In this document: positions 1 through 21,200 of the stretch, in pieces
Layout of the letters: each line of letters begins with the position of its first letter
How positions within the stretch are numbered: the stretch's first letter is position 1
The notes under the pieces: generated by a model
Told to the model about the DNA's origin: nothing
Databases searched by the model: none
What the model saw: the letters and a program-made list of their open reading frames with translations, nothing else
Translations under genes and position numbers: made by a program
NCBI GenBank assembly: GCA_963766075.1
Contig: CAVYAN010000062.1
Span: 1-21,602 of the forward strand
DNA length: 21,602 nt
Source: an uncultured cyanobacterium
Lineage (GTDB): Bacteria > Cyanobacteriota > Cyanobacteriia > Leptolyngbyales > Leptolyngbyaceae
Direction: 5' to 3'

Positions 1-1197
<1,197 letters not shown>

Positions 1198-1208
<11 letters not shown>

Positions 1209-1383
1209 CCTGTGCCTCTTCCCCCGCCGAGGCCCATGGCATCGCCACTTGTTCCATCACTTCCACCCGTTCTGGTGTCACTAACCCTTCCCGCTGGCGC
1301 AGCAACATCCATGCTTCACCGCTGGGACAGGCCTGGAGCTTTTCGATCAGGTCGATATAGGATTGCAGCCGCTGTTGGTTCAT
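1198..1383 (-). CDS. Small hypothetical protein resembling the cyanobacterial N-terminal module 'MNEQRLQAY..LI..LL.CPSGEE'; possibly truncated; overlaps the ATPase start
   Basis: 61-aa ORF MNQQRLQSYIDLIEKLQACPSGE...VMEQVA; 11-bp overlap with the ATPase start codon region. Confidence 0.55.
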
Positions 1384-1446: not shown

Positions 1447-1479
1447 ACTTTAAGCAAACAAGTTGAGAAACTTGTGAGG
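1447..1479 (-). promoter_or_regulatory. Conserved promoter element, copy 1 (CCTCACAAGTTTCTCAAC-TTGTTTGCT-TAAAGT), upstream of the hypothetical-ATPase unit
   Basis: Ungapped match to the elements at 4241-4273 and 10725-10757; TAnnnT at identical spacing. Confidence 0.7.
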
Positions 1480-1496
1480 TTTAATTTCCTCACAAG
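1471..1496 (-). terminator. Hairpin CTTGTGAGG-N8-CCTCACAAG followed on the minus strand by TTTCT; candidate terminator of the TPR gene, overlapping the promoter element
   Basis: Perfect 9-bp inverted repeat about 28 nt after the TPR stop codon (1525); the U-tract is short. Confidence 0.4.
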
Positions 1497-1524
1497 GTGT
1501 AAGGTCGATCGCGGATCATCCGGT

Positions 1525-2910
1525 TTACTGGCCCAGTTGGTCGCGAAGAACATGGTCAACCTTGCCCGCCATCGGCGCGTTACCCTGGGCCTTGAAGAGA
1601 TCTCTCGCTTGTTTGAGCTCAGCGATCGCGGCCTCGCGCTGTCCGAGATCGGAGAAGGTCTCCCCGAGATTCGCGTGGGCCATAGCAGCATCGGGATCCA
1701 GGCGGATGGCTTCGCGATACTCGGCGATCGCGGCTTCACTGTGACCTTGAGCGTGGAGGGCACTCCCAAGGTTATTGTGAGCTATGGCCTCGTTGGGATC
1801 GAGGCGAAGGGCTTCTCGGTACTCGGCGATCGCCTCCTCAAGTTTGCCTTGAGTGCGGAGGGTAAACCCAAGGTTATTGTGCGCCCTGGCATAGTTGGGA
1901 TCGAGGCGAATGGCTTCTCGGTACTCGGCGATCGCTTCCTCAAGTTTGCCTTGAGAGTCGAGGGTCAGCCCAAGGTTATTGTGCACCTTGGCATAGTTGG
2001 GATCGAGGCGAATGGCTTCTCGGTACTCGGCGATCGCCTGCTCAAGTTTGCCTTGAGTGCGGAGGGTCAGCCCAAGGTTATTGTGCGCATTGGCATCGTT
2101 GGGATCGAGGCGAATGGCTTCTCGGTACTCGGCGATCGCCTCCTCAAGTTTGCCTTGGGTTTGGAGGGCAAACCCAAGATTATTGTGCACCTTGGCATCG
2201 TTGGGATCGAGGCGAATGGCTTCTCGGTACTCGGAAGATCGCCTTGCCTCAAGTTTGCCTTGAGGCGGAGGGTCAGCCCCCAAGGTTATTGTGCGCCGTG
2301 TCATCGTTGGGATTGATGCGAATAGCTTCTCGAAACTCGGCCACCGCTGCCTCAAGTTTGCCTTGCATCAAAAGGGCACTCCCCAACATATCGTGAGCCA
2401 TGTCATCGTTGGGATTGATGCGAATAGCTTCTCGAAGCTCGGCCACCGCTGCCTCAAGTTTGCCTTGCATCAAAAGGGCACCCCCCAACGTATCGTGAGC
2501 CATGGCATCGTTGGGATTAATGCGGATGGCTTCTCGAAACTCGGCGACCGCTGCCTCAAGTTTGCCTTGCATCAAAAGGGCACCCCCAACATATCGTGAG
2601 CCGCTGCGTTACTCGGGTTGAGTTGAACCGCTCTCCGAAAGGCGGCTTCCGCCCCGAGAAAATCTCCCGCTTGCATCAACTGCTGACCTTGCTCCAAATA
2701 TTGAGCGGCGGGGGCCTGCGCTATTGTCAACGGCGCTGATGCGTAACTGATCGGCAAATGATTGAGGGTCGGTAAATGATTGAGGGTCGGTAAATGATTG
2801 AGGGTCGGTAAATGGTTGATGACGATACTGGCGTGGGTATTTCCCGGTGTGCCGATGACTAAAGCCATCGCGACGGCCATCAGCAGCGCAGACGGTTTAA
2901 GGGTAGCCAT
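1525..2910 (-). CDS. Secreted/periplasmic tetratricopeptide-repeat protein (about 11 TPRs), split by frameshifts near 2580 and 2230-2285
   Basis: ORFs 2572..2910 (signal-peptide-like N-terminus, first TPR), 2273..2575 and 1525..2355 carry consecutive 34-aa repeats AHNNLG..L..QGKLEEAIAEYREAIRLDPN. Confidence 0.9.
1630..2600. repeat. Tandem 102-bp near-identical repeats encoding the TPR units, in two sub-types
   Basis: Recurrent gttgggatcgaggcgaatggcttctcggtactcggcgatcgcc (about 1630-2290) and gttgggattgatgcgaatagcttctcgaaactcggccaccgctgcctcaagtttgccttgcatcaaaagggca (about 2290-2600), 102-bp period. Confidence 0.9.
2751..2819. repeat. 18-bp tandem repeat (ggtaaatgattgagggtc, about 3.7 copies) encoding (NHLPTL)n
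   Basis: Directly visible; translation reads NHLPTLNHLPTLNHLPTLNHLPI. Confidence 0.95.
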
Positions 2911-2982
2911 ATGACTTAGCCTCCAGCGGCTAGAACCTAGTCGATTATTTTTCTCTCTGAAACAGTAGACGGTGTGACGAAC

Positions 2983-3306
2983 TCAGCGAGCGGGTGGGGT
3001 GGGGGCAATCTCTGGCGGCGGCGATGGGGGCGATTGCCCTGGCACTTGGAGTGGCACCTCGATTTCCATAGGCGGTGCGGACCGGATGATGAGTAGCGGG
3101 GTTGCCGGACGAGGGTTTTGTAACCGTTGAATGTCTAGTTCAAATTGTTGCCGCCCTTGGTTGAAAAATTGTTCAGAACTGCGCGGTTCCCCCAAATCGA
3201 CTGTCCGACCACATTCGGACGACGCCAAGGCTGGGGACAATCCCACGAACGCAAGGGTCAATGTTGCCATCAAGATTGGCAGTCGGGTCATTACAGTGCT
3301 TGACAT
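2983..3306 (-). CDS. Small secreted hypothetical protein with Pro-rich C-terminus
   Basis: 107-aa ORF; hydrophobic signal peptide ending ..SPALA; GAGGAGG SD-like sequence just upstream; co-oriented with the TPR gene. Confidence 0.65.
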   Translation of the reverse strand: MSSTVMTRLPILMATLTLAFVGLSPALASSECGRTVDLGEPRSSEQFFNQGRQQFELDIQRLQNPRPATPLLIIRSAPPMEIEVPLQVPGQSPPSPPPEIAPTPPAR

Positions 3307-3409
3307 ATAACCTCCTCTCCATGGCGGGTGCCATTGCTGGTAATGGTGGTTTCGGAGTGTCTTACTTTTGTGCTATCTCTATCTCTACTTTATTCATTAC
3401 CATTGCTCA

Positions 3410-3949
3410 TCAATTTTCTGGACGATTGATGTGCGCATATCCGGCGATCGCGGGTTCGGTTAAGCGCACTGCCGATTTTGGTGACACGGTAACGCTTAGA
3501 CTTCGCAGCGTTAGAACTTGTAACCTCTCCACCCCTTGGGGTGAAAAGCCATCGACAACGCCCAGAATGCCCCGCCCTTGGCTCGTCTCTGCCACAATCA
3601 CTTCTACCGGATTGGCCGTCGCACAGTAAATCGTACAGACCTCCGGACATTGTTTGATGGCATTGAGGAAATTGAGAGGATAGGCATCTTGCAACAGGAT
3701 GATAAAGCTGTGTCCGGCGGCGATCGCCGCCGCATTTTGCGTGGCAGCATCCTGCAAGGCGACATCATTCCCCGCCACCCGAATCAAACACGGTCCCGAT
3801 GCTTCACAAAAAGCAATGCCAAACCTCACCTGCGCCGAGGTGCTCACCATGATTTCGTACAGGTCTTCAATGGTTTTGATGAAGTGGGTTTGACCTAGAA
3901 TCAGGTTGCTCCCTGTGGGGAGTGCAATCGCCACTGATTTGAGTTCCAT
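3410..3949 (-). CDS. Adenosine-specific kinase family (DUF355) protein with aberrant C-terminus (deletion plus frameshift near 3526)
   Basis: Motifs NLILGQTHFIKTIEDLYE, FGIAFCEASGPCLIR, YPLNFLNAIKQCPEVCTIYCATANP and GRGILGVVDG. The native-like GYKF-stop lies out of frame at 3525..3511. Confidence 0.88.
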   Translation of the reverse strand: MELKSVAIALPTGSNLILGQTHFIKTIEDLYEIMVSTSAQVRFGIAFCEASGPCLIRVAGNDVALQDAATQNAAAIAAGHSFIILLQDAYPLNFLNAIKQCPEVCTIYCATANPVEVIVAETSQGRGILGVVDGFSPQGVERLQVLTLRSLSVTVSPKSAVRLTEPAIAGYAHINRPEN

Positions 3950-4240
3950 AGTCTGATCCTCCGTCTGATTTTGATAGAGAACAACTCGGTGCCGTACCTG
4001 GTGTCATGCTGGGTGTGATCCCGAGGACTCAACTCTATTGTGAGTCATTTCTACTGGCTGATTTTCAAGACGTACACATTTCCTCACGCGATCGCCGATT
4101 TAGCTAATAATGGCTGAAGCGCGGCATGAGCCACGTCAGAGAGGTTTGCTGATAGGACTACACTTATACTGAGGGAGCTTTTTTACACTCCTACCAACTT
4201 TTCAAACGCCCTCTAAAGGCTTTAACTAAAACTGATCCGC

Positions 4241-4273
4241 CCTCACAATTTCCTCAACTTGTTGACCTACGCT
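4241..4273 (+). promoter_or_regulatory. Conserved promoter element, copy 2 (CCTCACAATTTCCTCAAC-TTGTTGACC-TACGCT), upstream of the oxidoreductase
   Basis: Ungapped match to copies 1 and 3; 30 nt before the ATG at 4304. Confidence 0.7.
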
Positions 4274-4303
4274 GAAGAAACGGGATTGTCATGGGAGGTA
4301 AGT

Positions 4304-5881
4304 ATGAAAAGCTTTGATTATGTCATTCTGGGCGCGGGGCTAGGGGGGCTTTCTGCGGCTGCTTGCCTTGCGCGTCAAGGTTATGAAGTCGCCGTTTTAG
4401 AAAAACACGATTTGCCCGGTGGCTGCTGCCACACCTTTGATTATGGCGAGTATCACTTTTGTGCAGATGTGCATTACATTTCGCAATGCGGTTCTGGCCA
4501 AACTATTCATCAATTACTCAACTATCTGGAACGCGATGTTCCATTCAATTCCCTGGATCCAAATTGTATTGATCGCGTGATTACGCCTGAGGTAGACTTC
4601 AAAATCCCCCTGGGCTGGGAGACCTTGCGGGCTCGCTTACTGGCAACGTTTCCAGAAGAACGCGTCGCCATCAATCGCTACTGCGATGCGATTCGACACC
4701 TGCATCAAGACATCCATACGTTGACGCAAGAGGTGCATTGGTATGACGCCAAATGGTCAGATTGGTTGAAGCTGCCCAAATACTGGAATCTCTTCTCCAA
4801 GCGGAATTGGACCCTGCAAGACCTGTATAACCGGGTCGGACTTTCACCCAAGCTGCAAAACTTACTGGCAGGGCAAAGTGGCGATTATGCCTTACCCCCC
4901 AATGAAATTGCTCTCCTGAGTCACGCCTCCTTAGTTTGGGACTATTCGGAAGGCGCATATTATCCGAAATATCACTTCAAGCATTTGGTTGATACTCTGG
5001 TTGAAGCCATTACCACTAGCGGTGGCGTCGTGCAGTTGGCAACGCCTGTGGCGCAGATTGAAGTGTGCGATCGCGAGGTACAGTATGTCACCACCGCAGA
5101 GGGCGATATCTATCACGCAAAGAAAGCCTACATTAGCGACCTCGATCCCAAGCTCACCGTTCAATTGATGCACCCAGTTGGAGCCTTGAGTCCCCATGAA
5201 CATCAACGACTAACAGACTACCAATATTCCGCCAGTGCTTTCAACATCTACCTGGGGCTAGATAGTTGCTTCAAACCTGAACGCTATGGCATTGGCAACT
5301 GGAATATCTGGTACTATCCCACGGGCAATCTCAACCAGGCCTATCAGAACCAGTTACAGGGAGATTTCAGCCATCCGTGGATCTTTCTTGCTTGCCCCAC
5401 AATGAAATCCCATGAACCGGGCATGGCTCCCCCAGGACAGCATGTTCTAGAGATTGCCACGGTCTGCCCCTACGAACCGTTTGAACAGCTCCACAATACC
5501 GATCCCAAAGCCTACAAAGCCAAAAAGCGAGAAGTGTACCAACACATCATGACCAGTATCCGCGAGTTAATTCCCGATGTCGATGCTTATATCCGGATGA
5601 AAGTCTATGGCACACCGACCACCAGTGAATATTATCTGGGGCAGCCCCAAGGCAATATTTATGGTGCCAAGTTGATCCCACAGCAGGTGGGGCTGAATCG
5701 GTTGGGGTATACGACTGAATTAACCAATCTCTTTTTGGTCGGAGCCAGCGCGGGCTATCCCAGTGTGCCCGGTGTAATTGGCAATGGCATGGATGTGGTA
5801 GAACTGATGACGGGGCGATCGGTGTGGCACACAAAGAAAATCTCTGAACCCTTCTCTGAGCCCTTGGTAACGGCAGGGTAA
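4304..5881 (+). CDS. FAD-dependent oxidoreductase, phytoene desaturase/retinol saturase superfamily (COG1233)
   Basis: Rossmann motif DYVILGAGLGGLSAAACLA..G..V.VLEKH..PGG; C-terminal GTPTT..YY....GNIYG and NLFLVGAS..PSVPGV. ATG 4304 has GGGAGG upstream and is preferred over TTG 4259. Confidence 0.88.
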   Translation: MKSFDYVILGAGLGGLSAAACLARQGYEVAVLEKHDLPGGCCHTFDYGEYHFCADVHYISQCGSGQTIHQLLNYLERDVPFNSLDPNCIDRVITPEVDFKIPLGWETLRARLLATFPEERVAINRYCDAIRHLHQDIHTLTQEVHWYDAKWSDWLKLPKYWNLFSKRNWTLQDLYNRVGLSPKLQNLLAGQSGDYALPPNEIALLSHASLVWDYSEGAYYPKYHFKHLVDTLVEAITTSGGVVQLATPVAQIEVCDREVQYVTTAEGDIYHAKKAYISDLDPKLTVQLMHPVGALSPHEHQRLTDYQYSASAFNIYLGLDSCFKPERYGIGNWNIWYYPTGNLNQAYQNQLQGDFSHPWIFLACPTMKSHEPGMAPPGQHVLEIATVCPYEPFEQLHNTDPKAYKAKKREVYQHIMTSIRELIPDVDAYIRMKVYGTPTTSEYYLGQPQGNIYGAKLIPQQVGLNRLGYTTELTNLFLVGASAGYPSVPGVIGNGMDVVELMTGRSVWHTKKISEPFSEPLVTAG

Positions 5882-5883
5882 CT

Positions 5884-6318
5884 ATGGCAGTCAATCATCG
5901 AGAAAAAATCATTACGCTATGGGCCGTGTTTCTATTGGGGATTCTCTTTCACACCCAACTGGGTTTAATGCCCCTGTTTCACAACCAGAGTGTTGCCGCC
6001 TCTGATGCCCACGGAACGGAGAATATCGCCTGGATTCTATGGTTGATGCTGGGCTTTTTTGTCGTCCCCATGATTGCCATGATTACAATACTTTACGATA
6101 GCTCAATCCGCTATCGTAAGCTCCATTTTGGCATGACTGTTTTCTATTCAATCATGAATTTTTTCCATGTCGTGGCTGATTTACTAGTGAAACCAATCGC
6201 TTGGTATCAAATAACCTTAATGATTTTACTATTTCTAATTGGAATCTTACTCAATCTAGTTTCCTGGCAATGGATGAAAGCATGGAGAAACGATAAATTA
6301 TCGAGGAATATCAGATAA
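5884..6318 (+). CDS. Hypothetical integral membrane protein (about 4 TM helices), probably co-transcribed with the oxidoreductase
   Basis: 144 aa with four hydrophobic stretches; starts 2 nt after the upstream stop. Confidence 0.78.
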   Translation: MAVNHREKIITLWAVFLLGILFHTQLGLMPLFHNQSVAASDAHGTENIAWILWLMLGFFVVPMIAMITILYDSSIRYRKLHFGMTVFYSIMNFFHVVADLLVKPIAWYQITLMILLFLIGILLNLVSWQWMKAWRNDKLSRNIR

Positions 6319-6507
6319 CTTTTTGGTGTAACGTGTGTGTTTGTGTTGTATAGCTGTGGCAGATTAGTGACAGCTCTGAGGCGGTATTAACTATCTGTTA
6401 CTGAAACGATTTTACTGACACGAACAGCCCATCACACCATTCTGGGTGGCCGCGACAGGAATCGCCTCCGCGATGAAACTGGCTTTCACACCCATAAAAT
6501 CCCAGCA

Positions 6508-9500
6508 TCATTTCTTTGGGCTATTGGAGCGGGCAATCTGGTAAGCCGTAGTATTCATCGATCGGCTGCCCTTCACCCCTTGGGCGGCGAACCAGGCACA
6601 AAAGCGGCTCTGTTGTCCCAGGCTGAATGCTAATCGTGAGAAGTATGTCGGTTCACGATACAATGCAGCGGTAATCCCAGAGACATCGACCAGCGTAAGA
6701 CTGGGCAACTCAACGGCTTGGAACTCAGCAGCACCGATGTCGGCTCGACCCACTCTGGGAAATCCCCGCTGGTCGAGAGTCGAAAGCTCGGGATTACCTC
6801 TGTTAATGGCGGGGCTACCCGAAACCAGGGCATGGGTCTGGGTCGGCCCACCATTGTTGGCTAGGGGCGCAAGAATGCGATCAGGCTGACTTGCGGCACT
6901 TGGTCAGTGGCAAGGAGTGTCATCCCATCCACACCACTAGATTGGCTATACCCGAACAGGTTATAGCCTTCAAAAACAGCAACACCTGCATTCGCCACTT
7001 CTCGCCCCCTGTCAGCCCTATTTCCTGAAATCAGGCTATTCTCGATGGCTAAGCGGCTAGCCGGTTGATATGGAAATTGTACAGGGTCTTGACTTGCACT
7101 ATAGATACCACCACCCTGATGCGCTGAATTGCCTGTTAGGGTAGCGCTGGTGAGAGTGAGCATGCTCAAGTTGAAGAGGCCACCGCCACGCATCGCCGCC
7201 GAATTCCCAGAAAGGGTACTGTTATCGATCAGCACCGTGGGAACATAGCTGTAGAAGAGGCTGTCGTTATAGACACCCCCGCCATCGCCCTGGGTGGAAT
7301 TGCTCGTCAGGGTAAAGTGGGTAACGGTAAGCGTGCCGCCGTTAAAGATGCCACCACCACGGTCACTCGCTGAATTCCCGGCCAGGGTGCTGTTCGTGAG
7401 GGTGAGCGTGCCTGCCGATCCTATTCGCGATCGCCCGATATTGTGGATCAGCTCCCCCCACCCTGGCTGAATTTTCAGCCACGGTGCTGTTATCGATCAC
7501 TGCCGCGGGGAAGTTGCTGAAATGGCCACCATTAGCGATACCACCGACCATTTCTCTGAGTGCCGTCACGATGGAATGGATGAGGGTGAGCATGCCGTCG
7601 CTGTAGATGCCACCGCCGCTATCTTGCGCTGAATTGCCTATCACGGTGGAGTGGACAAGCGTCAGCGTACCATGGTTAAGGATGCCGCCGCCATTTCCCT
7701 GACCACTGAATTGCCTATCAGGGTGGAGCGCGTGAGGGTGAGCATGCGGTCGCTGTAGATGCCACCACCGCCAGAGCCCATGCCGAAAGGCCCTCCGTTC
7801 GCTGAATTGCCTGTCAAGGTGGAGTCCGTGAGCGTGAGCGTGCCCCGTTGTTGACAATGCCGCCGCCACTGCTGTCCGCCGAATTGCCCGTTAGGGTGGA
7901 GTCCGTAAGCGTGAGCGTGCCCCCGTGGTTGTAAATGCCGCCGCCAGAGCCTGTGCCGAAAGGCCCCCCACTCGCCGAATTACCCGTGAGGCTGGAGTGG
8001 ATGATCGTGAGCGTTCCCCCATTGTTGTAGATGCCGCCACCAATGGGGGAACTACCATTGCTCGTAATGCTGCGCTCACTGCCCTGAACCGCATTGTGAC
8101 TCAGGGTAACATTGGTAAGGGTGAGGGTACTGCCGTCATTGTAGATGCCGCCGCCGTAGACAATTTGGGGTTGAATCGTCTCGATGCCAACGACTCTGCC
8201 ATTGGCGATCGCCAAGCTATCCAGATTCACGGTATTGCCCGCCGCAACGGTCAATACCCGGTAGGCAGCGTTGCCGCTGAGGACAGTGGTGCTGGCTCCA
8301 GTTCCATTCAAATTCAGGGAGCGATCAACGGTGAGGGTATCCCCTGGTACGTGCCAGCCCCTAAATTGATGGTGCGACTACCCGCAACTGATCCGATCGC
8401 ATTAATGGCACTCTGAATCGAGCGGGTCGGTGCATCGACTTCCGGGTTCACCTGATTCAGGTCAAAGGTCAAGCCTCCCACGCTAGTCATGGAAATCGTT
8501 GTGTCGCCCGGATTGGCAAATCGCCGTCCGGTCAGCGTCAGGGAAGCAGTGCCGCCCCCGATTTGATTCACCGAGTCTGCTAACGTAATATCACCATTGC
8601 CACCCGCGCCCGATGCCGTAGTCAACCTGACATTTGTGCCGCTATCCAATGAGGCGGCAATCTGGGCCGGGGTAACCGTGCCGCCTGTCGTCGCGATGGT
8701 AATAATCCGAGGGATCAATTATCCAGGTTCCCGGCAGTCCGCGCACGGCACCGGCATCACCCGTTCCCCCGCCACATCCAACTGCCGAAGTCCAGAGGTT
8801 TCGACTAAACCGCCATTGCCGCCCTGTACTCCCCCAGTGGCTGTAATTCTCCCCTGCACCTGGGTACTTCCGTCAGCCCAAACAACCACCTGCCCCCCAT
8901 TGCCCTGGGTCAGAGCGTTGGCTTAAATTTATAGCGGCATCAACCACGATGGATTGTGTTCGGAACGGCGTAGTCCCTTGGTTTTGCCCAGTGCCGCCAA
9001 GGAACACAATGCCCCCACTATTCGGGCCAGAGGCGTTCAGATTGGCATGGATCAGGGAAATGCGATCTCCCAAGACTTGAATTTGGGCTGCATTTTGCGG
9101 CGTTGCGGCACTGACAGATAGGTTGCCACTGATGAGGGTAGTACCGGCTGCGGTCGAAATAAACGTACTACTACCGGTCAGTTTAACCAATCCATTCTCT
9201 ATGACTAATCCGGTAGCTTCCGGTATACTCCCTCCGGTGAGCAAGGCAGGCAACGACAGGGGCGTAATGCTGGGAAGATTGAGCCCATCACCATTCCGTA
9301 TCGGTAACTTCAGACTGAGCAGACTGCCCTCTGGGCTGATGTTGATCATATTTTCTCCGGGTGCTGCCCGATCGTGATGGTGCCACCTGGAGTCTCAATG
9401 GCTCCCGTATTTATCACAGTACCGCCCAATAGGGTAATGCTCTGTCCTCGTCCAGCGCTCAAAATGCCAGCGTTTAGAATTGTCCCCGGATTCGTTCCCA

Positions 9501-10014
9501 GGAATGCCACCTGATTGGGTGTACCCATTAGGTGGGTATAATCATTGAGGCCACTCGCATTAAACCAGCCATTACCCATGCCGATGCCATTAGCCGTTGT
9601 GGCCACAAATGAGGCCGGGAGATCCAAACGAGCATTTGGGCCAAAAATGATACCTGCGGGGTTCATCAAAAATAGATTGGAATTACCGCCACTGACCTGA
9701 AGTAGACCATTGATCATGGAGGTATTGCCACCCATGACTCGCCCCAGAATGTTTTGAATGCTGGGATTGCTCAGAAAATTGGCAACTTGCCCCTGAGACA
9801 GCCCAAACTGCTGAAAGCTATGGAAAAGATTAGCCCCAGATTGAGTTCCGCCAGTAATGTCAAACTGATTCGGATTGCTGGCCGGACTGGAGAGGATTGT
9901 CTGGGTATCAGCGGCAGGTATAATGGGTTGACTATAAGCAGCTTTAATCCCCAAGATGGGCAATACAACGGCAATAATCAGCGAGCTTATAAAATGATAA
10001 AATTGAGCTTTCAT
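6508..10014 (-). CDS. Filamentous haemagglutinin-family exoprotein (TPS/haemagglutination-activity N-domain, GGGIYN beta-helix repeats, choice-of-anchor Q-like C-domain), copy A, multiply frameshifted
   Basis: Signal peptide; NLFHSFQQFGL..GQVANF..NPSIQNILGRV.GG..S.ING..NLFLMNPAGIIFG; GGLVETSG; repeated LTLTDSTLTGNSA..GGGIYN; LANNGGPTQTHALVSGSPAINRG..DQRG..R....DIGAAE; stop at 6508. Confidence 0.9.
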
Positions 10015-10197
10015 ATTAACTCGACAATTAAATAGAATGCATTTTACAACGCGGCATAAGCAATTTCAGGATGCTGAAAATAACTGCTAACGCGGTCCGA
10101 TGATTTCTGCAATTTCCACAGGTGAGACATCAATCACTGTTTGAGTTGATGCAGGTTTCGGCAGGGCAGTTGATCATGCACACCCTGTTTCACATCG

Positions 10198-10716
10198 CTA
10201 TTGCGTCACCGCATCCGGATCCTGTTCATAGGCCCGCTCGGTTGGTCTTTGAGGGCTATATCGCCAGCGTTTGAGATATTCTCCCACGCTCCGAATCGGT
10301 AGCTTGACCCCACATAATTGTTCAATCAAGGCCTGCACCGCTGAGCGGGTCTACAGCACACTGTCAATCTCATAATCCTCCGGAACATGTCCACTCATCG
10401 CCGCCTGCACATCCGCTTCATCCATCGGACTCAGGATCCGGCCTTCGCCCGTCGCGAGTCCCCGCTTGAGTTGATGCAGCGTGGACTCGCCATGGTGTTC
10501 ATATTGCCACCACCAATCAGTAACCGTATTCCGGTGCACCCCAAGGTACTCGCTGATATCGTTGATGCGCTTCCCTTGTTGCCGCAGTCGAATTGCTTGT
10601 TGTCGAAGGTAATCTTGGGTCTCTATCATGAGGTGTTGAGCATCAGGGGTATCCATATCAACCTCCTTATTCCTCTAATTTCCCATTATACCTATCTTTT
10701 CTATTACCAAGTTAAT
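10198..10716 (-). mobile_element. IS630-family transposase remnant (HTH region only, internal stop), copy A
   Basis: ETQDYLRQQAIRL..GKR..DI..YLGVHRNTV..WW; after an in-frame TAG it continues TRSAVQALIEQLCGVKLPIRSVGEYLKRWRYSPQRP.ERAYEQDP; no DDE domain. Confidence 0.85.
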
Positions 10717-10724
10717 CGCTGCAT

Positions 10725-10757
10725 CCTCACAAGATCCTCAACTGGTTTGCCTATAGT
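10725..10757 (+). promoter_or_regulatory. Conserved promoter element, copy 3 (CCTCACAAGATCCTCAAC-TGGTTTGCC-TATAGT), upstream of hsp20 copy A
   Basis: Ungapped match to copies 1 and 2; near-consensus -10 box TATAGT. Confidence 0.7.
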
Positions 10758-10859
10758 AAAGCTGGAGTCAAGGAAGCCCATACACAGGTACGCTACACCG
10801 GGAACGCTACACCATGGCTCTCATCCCAAATCCCAATCATTCTCCAAGGAGGACGTGTT

Positions 10860-11314
10860 ATGTCGCTGATTCGTTGGCAACCGATGCAAGAATTAGATGT
10901 GCTCCGTCGGCAAATGGATCAACTGTTTGAAGGATTGACAGTCCGCGATTTCCCGGCGCTGTCAATGAATGGTGAAACGAAATGGATCCGGCGATCGAGA
11001 TCCAAGAAACCGATACCGAGGTCATTCTGAAAGCCCAAATTCCTGGTATCGCAGCTAAGGATTTGGACGTGCAAGTGAGTCCCGATACGGTGATGTTGAA
11101 AGGTGAATATCAGCAAGAAACCAAGACCGAGGAAAAAGGTTTCTCGCGTTCGGAATTCCACTATGGGCACTTTGCCCGCACCGTCCCCCTGCCGGCCCTC
11201 GTGCAACATGAGCAAGTGAAATCCAGCTTCAAGAATGGCGTTCTGACGTTGACCCTGCCCAAAGAAACCGAGGTGCCGCGCAAAGTCGTTAAAGTGGATT
11301 TGACGCAGCAATAG
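10860..11314 (+). CDS. hspA: Hsp20/alpha-crystallin small heat-shock protein, copy A (1-bp deletion near 10987 relative to copy B)
   Basis: AAGGAGG SD, ATG 10860 MSLIRWQPMQELD; tggatccgg here versus tggatgccgg in copy B; alpha-crystallin motifs SEFHYGHFARTVPLP and FKNGVLTLTLPK. Confidence 0.9.
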
Positions 11315-11354
11315 GAGTTCGCGGTGCCGCCGGACTGACTAGACTGGTGGCACC

Positions 11355-11385
11355 ACCACTAGATGTCTAGTAGATATTTAGTGGT
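11355..11385 (+). terminator. Hairpin downstream of hsp20 copy A, abutting the IS5 end
   Basis: ACCACTAGATGTCT-AGT-AGATATTTAGTGGT imperfect inverted repeat; no U-tract remains. Confidence 0.4.
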
Positions 11386-11387
11386 AA

Positions 11388-12017
11388 GAGCCTATCCGGA
11401 AACCTCGGATTTTAAGAGAAGCTTAGTATAAGGAGCTTTTGGAGACTGAGCAGGTATGAACTTCACAGAAATCGACCCCCGATTCTTGTGTCGAGATGAA
11501 GTTTGGGAGTGTGTCAAAAGTGTGCTTCCACCAGAGCGTCCTAAACCCAGAGGCGGACGACCTCGGATGGCAGACCGAGACGCTTTGAATGGGATTTTTT
11601 ATGTGCTGCGAACCGGCATTCAATGGAAGGCATTACCTCGGTGTTTGGGTGCAGCCAGTACCGTGCATGACCGCTACCAAGAATGGGTGGACCAAGGGGT
11701 ATTTGAGCACATGTGGGAAGTAGGGTTGAACGAGTATGCAGAGAAAGTCGGGATTGAATGGGAATGGAGCGCGATGGACGGAGCAATGGTGAAGGCTCCG
11801 TTGGGGGGAAAAAGCAACGGGTCCCAACCCAACTGACAGAGCCAAGTCTGGCACCAAACGGAGTATGTTGACTGATGGTCGGGGAGTGCCGCTGGGAGTT
11901 GCCCTGGAAGGGGCCAATCGTCATGATATGAAGATGACAGAAGCAACGCTAGAGAGTCAGCGCATTGTCCCCCCAGATACTGATGAAAAGTGCCGACGAA
12001 ATCTCTGTTTAGACAAA
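11388..12017 (+). mobile_element. IS5-family element (two-ORF, frameshift type), 3'-truncated copy
   Basis: Left TIR GAGCCTATCCGGAAAC after TAA; orfA 11456..11836 (GGRPR..D..LNGIFYVLRTGIQWKALP); GGGGGGAAAAAGC slippery site 11803-11815; orfB cut at ..CLDK by the next IS. Confidence 0.92.
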
Positions 12018-13019
12018 AGAGTTGTCGGGAAATAAAAGTTGAGTGAGGCAATGTTGCTCTCCAAGGCATTGTTTTTCAAGCAGCGAGCAGGTAGAAGTTC
12101 CATAAACCTGCGGCTGTAAGCATCAAGTGGTCATCAAAATCTTCAGTGCGATTGCGATAAATCATACTGACGGCGTTGTAACGCTTGACTCCAGCAAACG
12201 CATTTTCACAAACCACTCGCGATTGGCTCAAGGTGCGATTCTCTTGCTTTTGTCGGTCACTCAACTCGCCTCCTCTCGGTTTTTTGTGGGGTAGATGGAT
12301 GTTGTCATACTCTTTTTGCAAGCCTAAAAAGCCTAAATCGACTTCAATGGGAATCGCGTCTGGCACGCTCCCAGCGATGTCCTCTTCATCATGAAAGCGT
12401 TTGTCATGCAGTTTGCCTTCGCGGGCTTTGCTCAAAACCAGCACCCGTTTGGTTTCATCAACCGCTGCGAGATGCTTACGGGTATGGCGTTTCTTTTTGC
12501 CTGAGTAATTGGCTTGCTGCGCTTCCGGGTCTTGAGGACGGGCGATGGGGCGTTCGGTCCCATCAATCATCACCCGCTTCACCCCTGGAAAGCGCTGTAA
12601 AAAGGACTCTAGGCTGTCGAGCTTGCGCTCTGGTAACACCATCTTTTGACCCAAGCTGGCTTCGAGAATCGGCTGTAGACGATGCATCCACTCATGGGCT
12701 TGAGAGCGGTGGAGGTCGAAAATCAGTCCCGCCAAGTCAAAGGTGGGATAGCACTTAAAGTAAAACAGGATGAAAAACAGTTTCGCTTGGGTCGTGAGCA
12801 AGCGAGCTTTACGTCCACCACCGACAGCGCGTTGACGCGCTTGAGTTTGTCGGGTTTGTTCGTAAACGGGACTAAAGGTTTCTAGGAGCACATCAAATGC
12901 TTTGCGGTTCAAGCCAGTCAGTGCTCGCAGCAAGCGGTCTTGGTTCAGGGCCCGTTCAATATCCAGCATCTTCCTGTCCTATCACTGCTGTCTATTCTCT
13001 CTTATTTACCGACAAGTCT
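12018..13019 (-). mobile_element. Intact IS5-family (ISL2/IS702-like) insertion sequence, about 1002 bp, no target-site duplication
   Basis: TIRs AGAGTTGTCGGGAAATAA and (reverse complement) AGACTTGTCGGTAAATAA, 16/18 identical; flanks AAA versus ATT. Confidence 0.88.
12076..12969 (-). CDS. DDE transposase (HTH_Tnp_4 + DDE_Tnp_4 type)
   Basis: 297 aa; LTGLNRKAF, IDGTERPIARP....Q..NYSGKKKRHT, VDLGFLG, RVVCENAFAGVKRY. Confidence 0.92.
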   Translation of the reverse strand: MLDIERALNQDRLLRALTGLNRKAFDVLLETFSPVYEQTRQTQARQRAVGGGRKARLLTTQAKLFFILFYFKCYPTFDLAGLIFDLHRSQAHEWMHRLQPILEASLGQKMVLPERKLDSLESFLQRFPGVKRVMIDGTERPIARPQDPEAQQANYSGKKKRHTRKHLAAVDETKRVLVLSKAREGKLHDKRFHDEEDIAGSVPDAIPIEVDLGFLGLQKEYDNIHLPHKKPRGGELSDRQKQENRTLSQSRVVCENAFAGVKRYNAVSMIYRNRTEDFDDHLMLTAAGLWNFYLLAA

Positions 13020-15948: not shown

Positions 15949-16850
15949 GAGCCTATCCGAAAACTTGAACAGCCCGCACTGCAATGGTTGCAAAGGATAG
16001 ATGAATCATTGCCAGGTAATTCTCAGGCTTCTTCTCCCAGCGTATTAATAACCGTCGAAATTGGTTCATCCAAGCATGAGTCCGTTCCACCACCCAGCGC
16101 CTTGCTCTGTAATTGGGAAGGTCCTGTCATGAATCATGCGCTTACTCTCATCCCTCGGAGGAATATGCCCCACATCTCCCCAAGCTCTGACAAGTTGTCG
16201 CACTTCTTCATAGTCGTATCCTTTGTCTAAACAGAGATTTCGTCGGCACTTTTCATCAGTATCTGGGGGGACAATGCGCTGACTCTCTAGCGTTGCTTCT
16301 GTCATCTTCATATCATGACGATTGGCCCCTTCCAGGGCAACTCCCAGCGGCACTCCCCGACCATCAGTCAACATACTCCGTTTGGTGCCAGACTTGGCTC
16401 TGTCAGTTGGGTTGGGACCCGTTGCTTTTTCCCCCCAACGGAGCCTTCACCATTGCTCCGTCCATCGCGCTCCATTCCCATTCAATCCCGACTTTCTCTG
16501 CATACTCGTTCAACCCTACTTCCCACATGTGCTCAAATACCCCTTGGTCCACCCATTCTTGGTAGCGGTCATGCACGGTACTGGCTGCACCCAAACACCG
16601 AGGTAATGCCTTCCATTGAATGCCGGTTCGCAGCACATAAAAAATCCCATTCAAAGCGTCTCGGTCTGCCATCCGAGGTCGTCCGCCTCTGGGTTTAGGA
16701 CGCTCTGGTGGAAGCACACTTTTGACACACTCCCAAACTTCATCTCGACACAAGAATCGGGGGTCGATTTCTGTGAAGTTCATACCTGCTCAGTCTCCAA
16801 AAGCTCCTTATACTAAGCTTCTCTTAGATCCGAGGTTTCCGGATAGGCTC
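15949..16850 (-). mobile_element. Full-length IS5-family element (902 bp) with TTA target duplication
   Basis: TIRs GAGCCTATCCGAAAAC (15949) and GTTTCCGGATAGGCTC (ends 16850), 15/16 identical; TTA at both 15946-15948 and 16851-16853. Confidence 0.93.
15953..16783 (-). CDS. IS5 transposase orfA/orfB with a probable programmed -1 frameshift (16424-16436) and an extra disruption near 16125-16135
   Basis: orfA 16403..16783; orfB ..LTDGRGVPL..GANRHD..CLDKGYD; the C-terminal RARRWVVERTHAWMNQFRRLLIRWEKKPENY..VFG-stop is in a third frame and ends inside the TIR. Confidence 0.88.
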
Positions 16851-16852
16851 TT

Positions 16853-16883
16853 ACCACTAGATATGTACTAGACATCTAGTGGT
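16853..16883 (-). terminator. Hairpin downstream of hsp20 copy B (ACCACTAGAT-N11-ATCTAGTGGT)
   Basis: Perfect 10-bp arms about 40 nt after the hsp20 stop; the IS5 sits at its base. Confidence 0.4.
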
Positions 16884-16923
16884 GGTGCCACCAGTCTAGT
16901 CAGTCCGGCGGCACCGCGAACTC

Positions 16924-17379
16924 CTATTGCTGCGTCAAATCCACTTTAACGACTTTGCGCGGCACCTCGGTCTCTTTGGGCAGGGTCAACGTCAGAACGC
17001 CATCCTTGAAGCTGGATTTCACTTGCTCATGTTGCACGAGGGCCGGCAGGGGGACGGTGCGGGCAAAGTGCCCATAGTGGAATTCCGAACGCGAGAAACC
17101 TTTTTCCTCGGTCTTGGTTTCTTGCTGATATTCACCTTTCAACATCACCGTATCGGGACTCACTTGCACGTCCAAATCCTTAGCTGCGATACCAGGAATT
17201 TGGGCTTTCAGAATGACCTCGGTATCGGTTTCTTGGATCTCAATCGCCGGCATCCATTTCGTTTCGCCATTCATTGACAGCGCCGGGAAATCGCGGACTG
17301 TCAATCCTTCAAACAATTGATCCATTTGCCGACGGAGCACATCTAATTCTTGCATCGGTTGCCAACGAATCAGCGACAT
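16924..17379 (-). CDS. hspA: Hsp20/alpha-crystallin small heat-shock protein, copy B (intact, 151 aa)
   Basis: MSLIRWQPMQELDVLRRQMDQLF..WMPAIEIQET..FSRSEFHYGHFARTVPLP..GVLTLTLPK..KVVKVDL. Confidence 0.95.
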   Translation of the reverse strand: MSLIRWQPMQELDVLRRQMDQLFEGLTVRDFPALSMNGETKWMPAIEIQETDTEVILKAQIPGIAAKDLDVQVSPDTVMLKGEYQQETKTEEKGFSRSEFHYGHFARTVPLPALVQHEQVKSSFKDGVLTLTLPKETEVPRKVVKVDLTQQ

Positions 17380-17481
17380 AACACGTCCTCCTTGGAGAAT
17401 GATTGGGATTTGGGATGAGAGCCATGGTGTAGCGTTCCCGGTGTAGCGTACCTGTGTATGGGCTTCCTTGACTCCAGCTTT

Positions 17482-17514
17482 ACTATAGGCAAACCAGTTG
17501 AGGATCTTGTGAGG
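17482..17514 (-). promoter_or_regulatory. Mirror copy of conserved promoter element 3, upstream of hsp20 copy B
   Basis: actataggcaaaccagttgaggatcttgtgagg is the reverse complement of 10725..10757. Confidence 0.7.
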
Positions 17515-17522
17515 ATGCAGCG

Positions 17523-18041
17523 ATTAACTTGGTAATAGAAAAGATAGGTATAATGGGAAATTAGAGGAATAAGGAGGTTGATATGGATACCCCTGATGCT
17601 CAACACCTCATGATAGAGACCCAAGATTACCTTCGACAACAAGCAATTCGACTGCGGCAACAAGGGAAGCGCATCAACAATATCAGCGAGTACCTTGGGG
17701 TGCACCGGAATACGGTTACTGATTGGTGGTGGCAATATGAACACCATGGCGAGTCCACGCTGCATCAACTCAAGCGGGGACTCGCGACGGGCGAAGGCCG
17801 GATCCTGAGTCCGATGGATGAAGCGGATGTGCAGGCGGCGATGAGTGGACATGTTCCGGAGGATTATGAGATTGACAGTGTGCTGTAGACCCGCTCAGCG
17901 GTGCAGGCCTTGATTGAACAATTATGTGGGGTCAAGCTACCGATTCGGAGCGTGGGAGAATATCTCAAACGCTGGCGATATAGCCCTCAAAGACCAACCG
18001 AGCGGGCCTATGAACAGGATCCGGATGCGGTGACGCAATAG
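17523..18041 (+). mobile_element. IS630-family transposase remnant, copy B
   Basis: Mirror of 10198..10716; TATAAT at 17549-17554 and AAGGAGG before ATG 17583; same internal TAG at 17886-17888. Confidence 0.85.
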
Positions 18042-18224
18042 CGATGTGAAACAGGGTGTGCATGATCAACTGCCCTGCCGAAACCTGCATCAACTCAAAC
18101 AGTGATTGATGTCTCACCTGTGGAAATTGCAGAAATCATCGGACCGCGTTAGCAGTTATTTTCAGCATCCTGAAATTGCTTATGCCGCGTTGTAAAATGC
18201 ATTCTATTTAATTGTCGAGTTAAT

Positions 18225-21200
18225 ATGAAAGCTCAATTTTATCATTTTATAAGCTCGCTGATTATTGCCGTTGTATTGCCCATCTTGGGGATTAAAGCTG
18301 CTTATAGTCAACCCATTATACCTGCCGCTGATACCCAGACAATCCTCTCCAGTCCGGCCAGCAATCCGAATCAGTTTGACATTACTGGCGGAACTCAATC
18401 TGGGGCTAATCTTTTCCATAGCTTTCAGCAGTTTGGGCTGTCTCAGGGGCAAGTTGCCAATTTTCTGAGCAATCCCAGCATTCAAAACATTCTGGGGCGA
18501 GTCATGGGTGGCAATACCTCCATGATCAATGGTCTACTTCAGGTCAGTGGCGGTAATTCCAATCTATTTTTGATGAACCCCGCAGGTATCATTTTTGGCC
18601 CAAATGCTCGTTTGGATCTCCCGGCCTCATTTGTGGCCACAACGGCTAATGGCATCGGCATGGGTAATGGCTCAGTTAATGCGAGTGGCCTCAATGATTA
18701 TACCCACCTAATGGGTACACCCAATCAGGTGGCATTCCTGGGAACCAATGAGGGGGCATTTCTAAACGCTGGCATTTTGAGCGCTGGACGAGGACAGAGC
18801 ATTACCCTATTGGGCGGTACTGTGATAAATACGGGAGCCATTGAGACTCCAGGTGGCACCATCACAGATCGCGGCAGCACCCGGAGAAAATATGATCAAC
18901 ATCAGCCCAGAGGGCAGTCTGCTGAGTCTGAAGTTACCGATACGGAATGGTGATGGGCTCAATCTTCCCAGCATTACGCCCCTGTCGTTGCCTGCCTTGC
19001 TCACCGGAGGGAGTATACCGGAAGCTACCGGATTAGTCATAGAAAATGGATTGGTTAAACTGACCGGTAGTAATACGTTTATTTCGACCGCAGCCGGTAC
19101 TACCCTCATCAGTGGCAACCTATCTGTCAGTGCCGCAACACCGCAAAATGCAGCCCAAATTCAAGTCTTGGGCGATCGCATTTCCCTGATCCATGCCAAT
19201 CTGAACACCTCTGGTCCGAATAGTGGGGGCATTGTGTTCCTTGGCGGCACTGGGCAAAACCAAGGGACTACGCCGTTCCGAACACAATCCATCGTGGTTG
19301 ATGCCGCTACTCAAATTCAAGCCGACGCTTCTGACCCAGGGCAATGGGGGGCAGGTGGTTGTTTGGGCTGACGGAAGTACCCAGGTGCAGGGGAGAATTA
19401 CAGCCACTGGGGGAGTACAAGGCGGCAATGGCGGTTTAGTCGAAACCTCTGGACTTCGGCAGTTGGATGTGGCGGGGGCACGGGTCGATGCCGGTGCCGT
19501 GCGCGGACTGCCGGGAGCCTGGATAATTGATCCCTCGGATATCACCATCGCGACGACAGGCGGCACGGTTACCCCGGCCCAGATTGCCGCCTCATTGGAT
19601 AGCGGCACAAATGTCAGGTTGACTACGGCATCGGGCGCGGGTGGCAATGGTGATATTACTTTAGCGGACTCGGTGAATCAAATCGGGGGCGGCACTGCTT
19701 CCCTCACGCTGACCGGACGGCGATTTGCCAATCCGGGCGACACAACGATTTCCATGACTAGCGTGGGAGGTTTGACCTTTGACCTGAATCGGTGAACCCG
19801 GAAGTCGATGCACCGACCCGCTCAATTCAGAATGCCATTAATGAGATCGGATCAGTTGCGGGTAGTCGCACCATCAATTTGGGGCTGGCACGTACACAGG
19901 GGATACCCTCACCGTTGATCGCTCCCTGAATTTGAGTGGAACTGGAGCCAGCACCACTGTCCTCAGCGGCAACACTGCCTACCGGGTATTGACCGTTGCG
20001 GCGGGCAATACCGTGAATCTGGATAGTTTGGCGATCCCCAATGGCAGAGTCGTTGGCATCGAGACGATTCAACCCCAAATTGTCTACGGCGGCGGCATCT
20101 ACAATGACGGCAGTACCCTCACCCTTACCAATGTTACCCTGAGTCACAATGCGGTTCAGGGCAGTGAGCGCAGCATTATGAGCAATGGTAGTTCCCCCAT
20201 TGGTGGCGGCATGTACAACAATGGGGGAACGCTCACGATCATCCACTCCAGCCTCACGGGTAATTCGGCGAGTGGGGGGCCTTTCGGGCAGGCTCTGGCG
20301 GCGGCATTTACAACCACGGGGGCACGCTCACGCTTACGGACTCCACCCTAACGGGCAATTCGGCGGACAGCAGTGGCGGCGGCATTGTCAACAACGGGGG
20401 CACGCTACGCTCACGGACTCCACCTTGACAGGCAATTCAGCGAACGGAGGGCCTTTCGGCATGGGCTCTGGCGGTGGTGGCATCTACAGCGACCGCATGC
20501 TCACCCTCACGCGCTCCACCCTGATAGGCAATTCAGTGGTCAGGGGAAATGGCGGCGGCATCCTTAACCATGGTACGCTGACGCTTGTCCACTCCACCGT
20601 GATAGGCAATTCAGCGCAAGATAGCGGCGGTGGCATCTACAGCGACGGCATGCTCACCCTCATCCATTCCATCGTGACGGGCAACTCAGCAGAAATGGGC
20701 GGTGGTATTGCTAATGGTGGCCATTTCAGCAACTTCCCTGCGGCAGTGATCATAACAGCACCCTGGCTGAAAATTCAGCCAGGGTGGGGGGAGCTATCTA
20801 CAATATAGGGCGATCGCGAATAGGATCGGCAGGCACGCTCACCCTCACGAACAGCACCCTGGCCGGGAATTCAGCGAGTGACCGTGGTGGTGGCATCTTT
20901 AACGGCGGCACGTACCGTTACCCACTCTACCCTGACGAGCAATTCCACCCAGGGCGATGGCGGGGGGGTCTATAACGACAGCCTCTTCAACACTATATTC
21001 CCAGGTGCTGATCGATAACAGTACCTTTTCTGGGAATTCGGCGGCGATGCTGGCGGTGGCCTCTTCAACTTGAGCATGCTCACTCTCACCAGCGCTACCC
21101 TAACAGGCAATTCAGCGCATCAGGGTGGTGGTATCGATAGTGCAAGTCAAGACCCTGTACAATTTCCATATCAACCGGCTAGCCGCTTAGCCATCGAGAA

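Follow-up and report, generated by a model that had tools for sequence, protein, structure and literature searches.

The cyanobacterial response regulator RcaC carries, in this order, a receiver, an OmpR-type DNA-binding domain, an Hpt domain and one or more further receivers, and in mycobacteria the heme kinases DosS and DosT drive, through DosR, a hypoxia regulon rich in universal stress proteins (Usp) and an alpha-crystallin small heat-shock protein. These and other systems are compared here with a 33-bp promoter element, the CCTCA box, that lies upstream of unrelated genes on a contig of 21,602 nucleotides from an uncultured cyanobacterium of the Leptolyngbyaceae (GenBank assembly GCA_963766075.1, contig CAVYAN010000062.1, positions 1 to 21,602; the window in what follows). 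In the Escherichia coli pho box, tandem repeats lie 10 bp upstream of a -10 TAN3T (available part of PMC1906773). In the RcaE-RcaF-RcaC system, a phosphorelay with a single-domain receiver leads to phosphorylated RcaC, which binds the L-box in target promoters (available part of PMC8256508). The cyanobacterial low-oxygen regulators treated in the available part of a 2026 review are ChlR, cyAbrB2/SigE and LexA, which control low-oxygen or fermentation genes such as chlAII-ho2-hemN, hox and nifJ; ChlR is a MarR-type protein with the palindromic site TTMCC-N3/4-GGWAA, and cyAbrB2 is nucleoid-associated and found on AT-rich DNA (PMC13421787).

The system described here resembles the pho box in geometry, RcaC in its relay, FixL in its sensor and the DosR regulon in content, and it is a member of none of them. 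The 33-bp element is very likely a transcription-factor box that defines a conserved regulon. Our preferred reading, to which we give a probability of about 0.6, is that the box is bound by the phosphorylated REC-winged-helix part of an RcaC-like regulator of the OmpR family, which would recruit RNA polymerase, probably at low oxygen. Searches of open-access papers and bioRxiv found no description of a CCTCA box (CCTCACAA), of the regulator clade proposed below or of a cyanobacterial FixL-like system.

Results and Discussion

A repeated promoter element in the window

The window spans contig C62 completely; this contig belongs to a 5.05-Mb assembly (126 contigs, completeness 84.9%), labeled G000 here; other G numbers and the f numbers are labels of sampled genomes and families. 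A preliminary description, made from the letters of the window, had quoted three 33-mers as one element in front of three unrelated operons and had pointed to a mirrored copy at a second hsp20 gene. The three 33-mers were present at the coordinates and on the strands claimed, 23 of their 33 positions were invariant in a manual recount, and the mirrored copy (17482..17514) was a fourth exact match of the pattern CCTCACAANNTYCTCAACTKGTT, for which 0.00 matches were expected in the window (100 shuffles). The box has the layout CCTCACAAnTTCCTCAA, then 10 nt, then TAnnnT, and its 17-mer core is CCTCACAAnnTyCTCAA. The sites, with their scores against a position weight matrix (PWM), are:

Box 1: 1479..1447, minus strand; CCTCACAAGTTTCTCAA, 10 nt, TAAAGT; PWM score 46.6, the top of the whole genome
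Box 2: 4241..4273, plus strand; CCTCACAATTTCCTCAA, 10 nt, TACGCT; PWM score 43.3
Box 3: 10725..10757, plus strand; CCTCACAAGATCCTCAA, 10 nt, TATAGT; PWM score 43.7; in the left arm of an inverted duplication
Box 4: 17514..17482, minus strand; same sequence as box 3; located in the right arm
Inverted copy of the first half-site, CTTGTGAGG: 1488..1496, minus strand; 8 nt upstream of box 1, read directly

Both hsp20 sites exist as described. They go back to a single promoter that a 99%-identical inverted repeat carries twice, which brings the number of independent promoters in the window to three instead of four.

CCTCA occupied positions 1-5 and 12-16 in every strong site and forms a tandem direct repeat with an 11-bp period, in agreement with the CTCA repeat first noticed (positions 2-5 and 13-16). 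The TAnnnT hexamer, originally placed 9 nt downstream, does start 9 nt from the end of CTCAAC; counted from the 17-mer core, the distance is 10 nt. At the -35 position the box reads ACAAGT, which by eye shares one of six letters with TTGACA, so no -35-like hexamer is present. This architecture, tandem repeats at 10-bp spacing from TAN3T in promoters that lack a -35 hexamer, suggests a head-to-tail dimer of an OmpR/PhoB-family protein that would act as a class II activator. The PhoB pho box and the SphR Pho boxes have the same geometry, in which repeats of 11-bp period stand in place of the -35 element and stop 10 bp short of TAN3T (available part of PMC1906773). The repeat itself differs, being CCTCA here and CTGTCA or CTTAACCT in pho boxes. 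Because its site is a palindrome and not a CCTCA direct repeat, ChlR was set aside as a reader of the box; ChlR and cyAbrB2 as described fit neither a CCTCA direct repeat nor an OmpR-type reader (available part of PMC13421787). A site for an alternative sigma factor, an option left open in the preliminary description, would also be expected to lie in the -35 region with constant spacing to the -10 element, and the box does so. The -10 element, however, is the ordinary TAnnnT of primary-type sigma factors, a tandem repeat of about 22 bp with 11-bp period is the signature of head-to-tail winged-helix dimers, and no sigma-factor gene occurred among the larger open reading frames (ORFs) scanned near boxes. 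A sigma-factor site is thus very improbable, and less likely than an activator site. The sites of Rre1/Hik34, NtcA and LexA and the HLR1 site of RpaB contain, to our knowledge, no CCTCA direct repeats and were set aside as well.

The window is rich in insertion sequence (IS) fragments and carries a large inverted duplication, a setting in which recurring 33-mers might be the ends or fragments of a dispersed miniature inverted-repeat transposable element (MITE), as the preliminary description had itself considered. In an alignment of six promoters, all invariant columns fell within the box and the flanks were unrelated, which bears out the claim that the upstream regions are non-homologous and practically rules out a MITE. 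Similarity ended at the edges of the 33-mer, the copies were single and always oriented toward a gene with the -10 hexamer at a fixed distance, and the same box preceded orthologous genes in different families, none of which fits a mobile element. The six promoters had no homology outside the box, and the MITE was rejected.

The inverted CTTGTGAGG copy beside box 1 can pair with 1471-1479 to form a 9-bp hairpin just past the stop codon of the upstream gene for a TPR protein. The hairpin may be the terminator of that gene, overlapping the activator site, or the copy may be an extra half-site.

Occurrence in this genome and across cyanobacteria

The PWM was built from eight of the 12 distinct G000 sites that matched the 17-mer with at most one mismatch; the four sites without TAnnnT at positions 28-33 were excluded. 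Scanning G000 gave 15 sites with scores of at least 21.7, 14 of them of at least 26.6, and the next score was 17.5, followed by noise. Three block-shuffled genomes gave one, zero and zero sites of at least 20, with a maximum of 24.6, and five of the six strong sites outside the training set exceeded this best shuffled score. TAnnnT occupied positions 28-33 in 13 of the 15 sites, and an ORF on the same strand started about 10-240 nt downstream of every one of them. The scan for genome-wide enrichment upstream of genes that had been suggested for the element thus returned 15 strong oriented copies against 0-1 in shuffled genomes.

Two larger sets were searched for the exact 17-mer: 40 relatives together with G000, and a class-wide set of 401 sampled cyanobacterial genomes from 168 genera. 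The 17-mer was present in 16 of the 41 genomes of the first set and in 108 of the 401 genomes of the second, where it reached 72 of the 168 genera; a reversed-pattern control gave seven hits in six genomes. It was frequent in families f1 (28 of 45 genomes), f16 (24 of 40) and f30 (three of three) and in most of f32, and was found in none of the 46 genomes of f2, a family with small genomes. Named genomes contained it in at least 121 stretches, and among the matches listed were Nostoc, Calothrix, Anabaena, Scytonema, Leptolyngbya, Phormidesmis, Stenomitos, Pleurocapsa, Xenococcus, Chamaesiphon and an Acaryochloris plasmid.

The spacing was conserved with the letters. Geometry was read from 78 sites in 75 listed stretches of named genomes, stretches titled as other phyla being left out. 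TAnnnT lay exactly 10 nt past the 17-mer in 54 of these 78 listed sites, and any other offset accounted for at most nine. Position 28 was T in 75 sites, position 29 was A in 74 and position 33 was T in 60, and in the relatives TA stood at positions 28-29 in 29 of 31 sites. In the listed named genomes the box is longer, with a T in front of each CCTCA and 'aTT' behind the second repeat. The original suggestion of a shared activator site of the OmpR/PhoB type, belonging to an uncharacterized regulon, agrees with the 11-bp repeats, the fixed 10-nt spacing and the presence of the box in 72 of 168 genera.

Genes downstream of the box

The genes behind the box encode pyruvate fermentation, sugar breakdown and dormancy-type stress protection. 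In the relatives, pflB, pflA, adhE, the gene for an ADP-forming acetyl-CoA synthetase, pfkA, ppsA-usp and hsp20 followed the box, as did genes for CBS-CP12, an NrdG-like activase and a flavoprotein resembling sulfide:quinone oxidoreductase (SQR-like). In distant families the box preceded genes for pyruvate:ferredoxin oxidoreductase (PFOR), ppsA, a sucrose synthase gene with one for a GH65-HAD protein, adhE and pflB. Hsp20 and P-type ATPase genes, both box-driven in the window, recurred behind the box in other genomes, the ATPases of the relatives being judged by N-terminal sequence only. Sixty-seven downstream ORFs from the listed named genomes were scanned with Pfam, three ORFs from stretches titled as other phyla having been left out. 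Usp was found six times, Hsp20, PFOR and DSP-phosphatase-like proteins five times each, PpsA three times, and CBS, protoglobin and pentapeptide proteins twice each; pyruvate formate-lyase (PFL), PfkA, alternative oxidase, radical-SAM protein and D1 occurred once each, as did five other single families, and 27 of the 67 had no Pfam family.

The other sites of G000 were followed by genes for a Usp protein, for phosphoenolpyruvate (PEP) synthase and then a second Usp, for two more P-type ATPase units (one within an ABC-2/HlyD/ATPase operon), for a DSP-phosphatase-like protein (BLH_phosphatase), for a small Cys-rich protein, for an ArsR-DUF3122-x-rhodanese operon, for a DUF305 protein and for three proteins without a Pfam family.

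Several of these products depend on anoxia or are typical of it, namely the glycyl-radical enzyme PFL with its activase, AdhE, PFOR and the NrdG-like activase. The low-oxygen or stress programme first suggested from the window is in keeping with the fermentation genes found behind the box both genome-wide and class-wide, and the regulon probably answers to low oxygen. The resemblance to the DosR regulon is one of functional analogy only, as neither the box nor the regulator is homologous; DosR is a NarL-type protein that binds palindromes, and the heme of its kinases sits in GAF domains. Phosphate uptake genes, the targets of PhoB and SphR, are replaced here by fermentation and stress genes.

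Some individual members and neighbors were observed in passing. Among named genomes, the box stood before a gene for D1 (Photo_RC; L187:788-1417), before protoglobin genes in two Anabaena records (L125, L142) and before a gene of the alternative-oxidase family (L151); these members were unexpected and are compatible with an oxygen-related programme. Sulfur-related genes stood behind or beside boxes, including the ArsR-DUF3122-x-rhodanese operon, DUF305 and SQR-like flavoprotein genes (L009, which is G000 C10 57000-64500; L043; L046), which hints that sulfide handling is part of the box programme. A box-driven PEP synthase of 1205 amino acids in G180 (L236:2971-6585) had an intein inside its mobile domain (Intein_splicing match). 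In G004 (L044:8390-12264), an ethylene-receptor-like ETR1_N-PAS-PAS-HisKA_2 kinase and a REC-PAS-HisKA kinase were encoded between box-driven pflB and pflA, and these two kinases may be further inputs to the relay discussed below.

Candidate regulator

The preliminary description had found no regulator gene in the window, and the candidates lie on other contigs: an OmpR-family regulator on C71 and a FixL-like kinase on C74. G000 has 17 Trans_reg_C genes, of which two long, multi-domain ones are right beside a box.

Candidate regulator: contig C71; 788 amino acids; REC-Trans_reg_C-Hpt-REC-REC-GGDEF (Pfam: Response_reg three times, Trans_reg_C 150-223, Hpt 260-340, GGDEF 620-776)
Paralogue: contig C106; 620 amino acids; a weak box (score 21.7) lies 50 nt past the stop, before two CheY genes
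FixL-like kinase and CheY-like gene: G000 contig C74; kinase of 574 amino acids, followed by the CheY gene

A box with a score of 33.0 lies about 690 nt past the stop of the C71 gene, behind an ORF of 128 amino acids. In a tree of REC-winged helix-turn-helix (wHTH) sequences, the C71 type formed a clade with support of 100/99 and members from ten genomes, and the orthologues share the N-terminal domain order.

The phyletic distribution of the C71 type followed that of the motif. With a cut-off of at least 65% identity to the N-terminal 235 amino acids of C71, 14 of the 40 relatives had an orthologue and 13 of these 14 carried the exact motif, compared with two of the 26 relatives that had none; the two were G016, with three good sites, and G002, with one site that has no -10 hexamer. 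Class-wide, a cut-off of E <= 1e-95, picked after the data were seen, gave 79 genomes with a C71-type match. When these were cross-tabulated by hand, 73 of the 79 had the motif and 53 had at least two copies, whereas the motif occurred in 34 of the 321 genomes with no such match and at least twice in nine of them. This co-occurrence is a strong association and not proof, since related genomes are not independent and the threshold was chosen post hoc.

Gene neighborhoods pointed the same way. Fourteen genomes of five families (G000, G017, G023, G035, G107, G123, G130, G131, G172, G180, G197, G284, G320 and G334) had a C71 orthologue no more than about 6 kb from a box. In each of the four f32 genomes inspected, the unit of box and Usp gene and an operon of regulator and CheY genes pointed away from each other, and the gene order in G035 and G284 was regulator, kinase (not in every case), CheY, box, DSP-phosphatase-like gene. 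Motif-rich islands of distant families had a REC-wHTH gene in one of 14 stretches (G130); in the genomes concerned the regulators lie outside the islands, beside a box-Usp unit.

All 11 orthologues compared, from five families, had the same recognition-helix stretch AVRTHIKGLR and the same wing ETVYGIGYRL, and an invariant recognition helix fits a box that is letter-identical across the same families. Considering distribution, neighborhood and recognition helix together, the C71-type protein is probably the reader of the box, to judge from these sequence comparisons.

In its REC-Trans_reg_C-Hpt-REC-REC part, and in having a CheY gene beside the kinase or the regulator, the candidate is like RcaC (available part of PMC8256508). 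Its C-terminal output varies, being GGDEF in G000 and a fused kinase in f32. PhoB and SphR, in contrast, are two-domain proteins without the Hpt domain and extra receivers of the candidate. RcaE is a bilin-binding cyanobacteriochrome and the Rca targets are phycobilisome genes, whereas the kinases associated with the C71 type have GAF and FixL-like PAS domains and the targets here are fermentation and stress genes. We therefore regard this as a paralogous system that works like Rca and not as Rca itself, a separation drawn from sensor and targets.

Candidate sensor and proposed relay

In some families the regulator is fused to the kinase that may feed it. Orthologues of the regulator in f32 are 1210-1770 amino acids long and continue, after the Hpt domain and receivers, into a fused (GAF)-PAS-PAS-HisKA-HATPase-REC part; G035 and G130 have separate genes for this kinase and for a CheY protein, both placed after the regulator. 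A CheY-like gene followed the regulator in G172, G123, G334, G284, G035 and G130. The C74 kinase of G000 was 64% identical over 398 amino acids to the kinase part of the G172 fusion, and the C74 CheY was 77% identical to the CheY beside the fused G172 regulator.

The first PAS domain of the G035 kinase matched FixL heme domains with E values from 5e-24 to 2e-16 (5e-24 to 5e-17 for 8js5, 1dp6 and 1d06, with 8js5 at 5e-24 and 1dp6 at 5e-18), the match to DosP being weaker, and it keeps residues that align with the proximal His of FixL and with the Arg of GIGR. We take these residues to be the counterparts of the FixL proximal His and distal-pocket Arg. The C74 kinase was 60% identical to the G035 PAS and keeps the His and the stretch GERxEIYGRRKDG. 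The associated kinases are thus like FixL in sequence, with a PAS domain that matches its heme domains and with His and Arg aligned. The partner differs: FixJ is of the NarL/LuxR type, and the protein here is of the OmpR type (Trans_reg_C) with an Hpt relay. On these matches there is an even chance that the FixL-like kinase and CheY of C74 are the input to the regulator.

The proposed chain, every step of which is inferred, would be a four-step relay on the plan of kinase, single-domain receiver, Hpt and receiver with DNA-binding domain seen in RcaE-RcaF-RcaC (PMC8256508), and would run as follows. The deoxy-heme form of the C74 kinase would be active when no oxygen is bound. Phosphate would pass from the kinase to the adjacent CheY, then to the Hpt domain of C71 and on to the N-terminal receiver of C71. 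The phosphorylated REC-wHTH part would bind the box and, in the manner of PhoB at pho boxes, bring in RNA polymerase and activate transcription. A kinase active without oxygen, as in FixL, would mean that the regulon is on in anoxia or hypoxia. In the window the targets would be the P-type ATPase unit, the FAD oxidoreductase with its membrane protein, and the small heat-shock protein gene.

Alternative readers and signals

Several observations weigh against the reading of the box as the site of a C71-type regulator that responds to low oxygen. Regulator and motif are linked by correlation, and both could track lifestyle or genome size. Six genomes had an orthologue-like match and no exact 17-mer (G021, G290, G187, G241, G291 and G312), and the nine genomes with at least two motif copies and no match at the chosen threshold include G016 with its three good sites. 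In G000 the genes for the C71 regulator and the C74 kinase lie apart, neither of them with a box upstream, so that it is fusions seen elsewhere that support their partnership. The low-oxygen signal is deduced from the genes behind the box and from the FixL match, and heme binding is a prediction. Of ten orthologues of the window oxidoreductase in the relatives, examined up to 400 nt upstream, one had a clear box (G016, score 33.3) and one a degenerate box (G008, 15.0). With a box before just one or two of ten orthologues, the oxidoreductase of box 2 is a lineage-specific member of the regulon.

The box might instead be a real activator site with another reader, either a REC-wHTH-Hpt paralogue of the type of C106 or of the G014 protein on C16, or an unrelated factor, the C71-type protein being a neighbor or a target. 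Many genomes have several such paralogues (three to ten long matches), and two boxes stand beside proteins of this kind: in G014 a box with a score of 29.3 lies 120 nt before a paralogue of another clade, and in G000 the weak box follows the C106 gene. These two placements also count against the C71 type, because paralogues may read the box or be its targets, as do the boxes of G016. The two paralogues compared differ from the C71 type at several positions of both the recognition-helix and the wing stretches, however, while the identity of these stretches in the C71 type fits the invariant 17-mer. The association in phyletic pattern and neighborhood was seen for the C71 clade, the sole clade so tested. 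The C106 paralogue was dropped as a reader of the box, its nearest relatives being in motif-free genomes (G036, G024). A different reader is unlikely, though it keeps an appreciable chance.

A second alternative retains the regulon and the C71-type regulator but not oxygen as the trigger. The cell would respond to darkness, to general stress or to its energy or redox state, through CBS-PAS hybrid kinases or a heme-free PAS domain. CBS domains usually bind adenine nucleotides. Hybrid kinases of the type CBS-PASn-HisKA-HATPase-REC are encoded in five motif-rich islands of other families. They could signal energy state in place of oxygen and may pass this signal to the Hpt domain of the regulator, which leaves some probability to a trigger other than oxygen. 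The commonest targets, Usp, Hsp20 and CBS proteins, are general stress proteins, and the G000 regulator ends in GGDEF and not in a kinase. PFL with its activase, AdhE, PFOR and the NrdG-like activase, on the other hand, need or typify anoxia, and the fused or adjacent kinase has a PAS domain that matches FixL heme domains with the aligned His and Arg kept. We consider a trigger other than oxygen quite unlikely, and low oxygen acting through the C71-type regulator remains our preferred explanation.

Neighboring genes and the inverted duplication

The genes that follow the boxes of the window are:

Unit behind box 1: 1..1383, minus strand; an ORF of 61 amino acids (1201-1383) and a cation P-type ATPase (Cation_ATPase_N, E1-E2_ATPase)
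Unit behind box 2: 4304..6318, plus strand; an FAD/NAD-binding oxidoreductase of the amine-oxidase type (4304-5881) and a membrane protein of 144 amino acids (5884-6318)
hsp20, left copy: 10860..11311, plus strand; frameshifted into ORFs 10860-11027 and 10982-11311
hsp20, right copy: 16927..17379, minus strand; intact, 151 amino acids, HSP20 domain

What had been described as an ATPase unit does contain a P-type ATPase behind box 1; the unit begins, however, with the 61-amino-acid ORF, and the ATPase gene is broken up into three or more ORFs (669-1208, 478-654 and 1-417) and continues past the contig end. Of the three P-type ATPase genes that G000 has behind boxes, two are split, that of the window (1-1208, minus strand) and one on C95 (L002:1598-4410); they may be pseudogenes, or the breaks may be frameshift errors of the assembly.

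Other genes lie between and beside these units. The TPR protein gene (1525-2910, minus strand) contains at least six copies of a 102-bp repeat unit that are 62-78% identical, and its N-terminal part has 18-bp tandem repeats (2751-2819) encoding a repeated LPTLNH. A gene for an adenosine-specific kinase (PF04008; 3410-3949, minus strand) lies upstream of box 2, and in G023 such a gene (L097:7219-7698) directly follows a cluster of box, hsp20 and DSP-phosphatase gene; it may be a conserved neighbor or a member of the regulon.

The inverted duplication pairs 6676-12020 with 16219-21565, about 5.3 kb per arm, at 99% identity (95-100% by block). Its arms hold hsp20, IS fragments and genes for exoproteins with a TPS domain and Chlam_PMP repeats that are broken into many short ORFs, and the 4.2-kb center between the arms holds an IS4/5-type transposase gene, hypE, pfkA and IS fragments. 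The whole could be a composite-transposon-like structure or an artifact of metagenome assembly. The PWM scan found no box before pfkA-hypE in the center, the best other score in the window being 8.5, and the region upstream of pfkA abuts IS fragments.

Significance for low-oxygen life in cyanobacteria

Every night, oxygen runs out for cyanobacteria living in mats, sediments and blooms, and they turn to fermentation and hydrogen metabolism. The low-oxygen regulators described so far come from two unicellular models and, in the available part of the source, include no dedicated sensor for fermentation genes (PMC13421787). The box is a sequence tag for annotating low-oxygen genes, many of them of unknown function, and potentially an anoxia-inducible promoter of about 40 bp for engineering hydrogen, ethanol or organic-acid production in cyanobacteria. 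Being letter-identical in 72 of 168 sampled genera, and having a candidate regulator and a candidate heme sensor, it provides a testable candidate for the missing switch that responds to loss of oxygen. More tentatively, and at somewhat less than even odds, a FixL-type heme sensor, a CheY-like shuttle and an RcaC-like regulator may together be the master anaerobic switch of benthic and filamentous cyanobacteria, from Leptolyngbya-like forms to the Nostocales. Through the CCTCA box this switch would drive fermentation, PFOR, sugar breakdown, ion pumps, the Usp and Hsp20 dormancy proteins and a D1 isoform, and the GGDEF tail of the regulator would, in the organism studied here, couple hypoxia to cyclic di-GMP.

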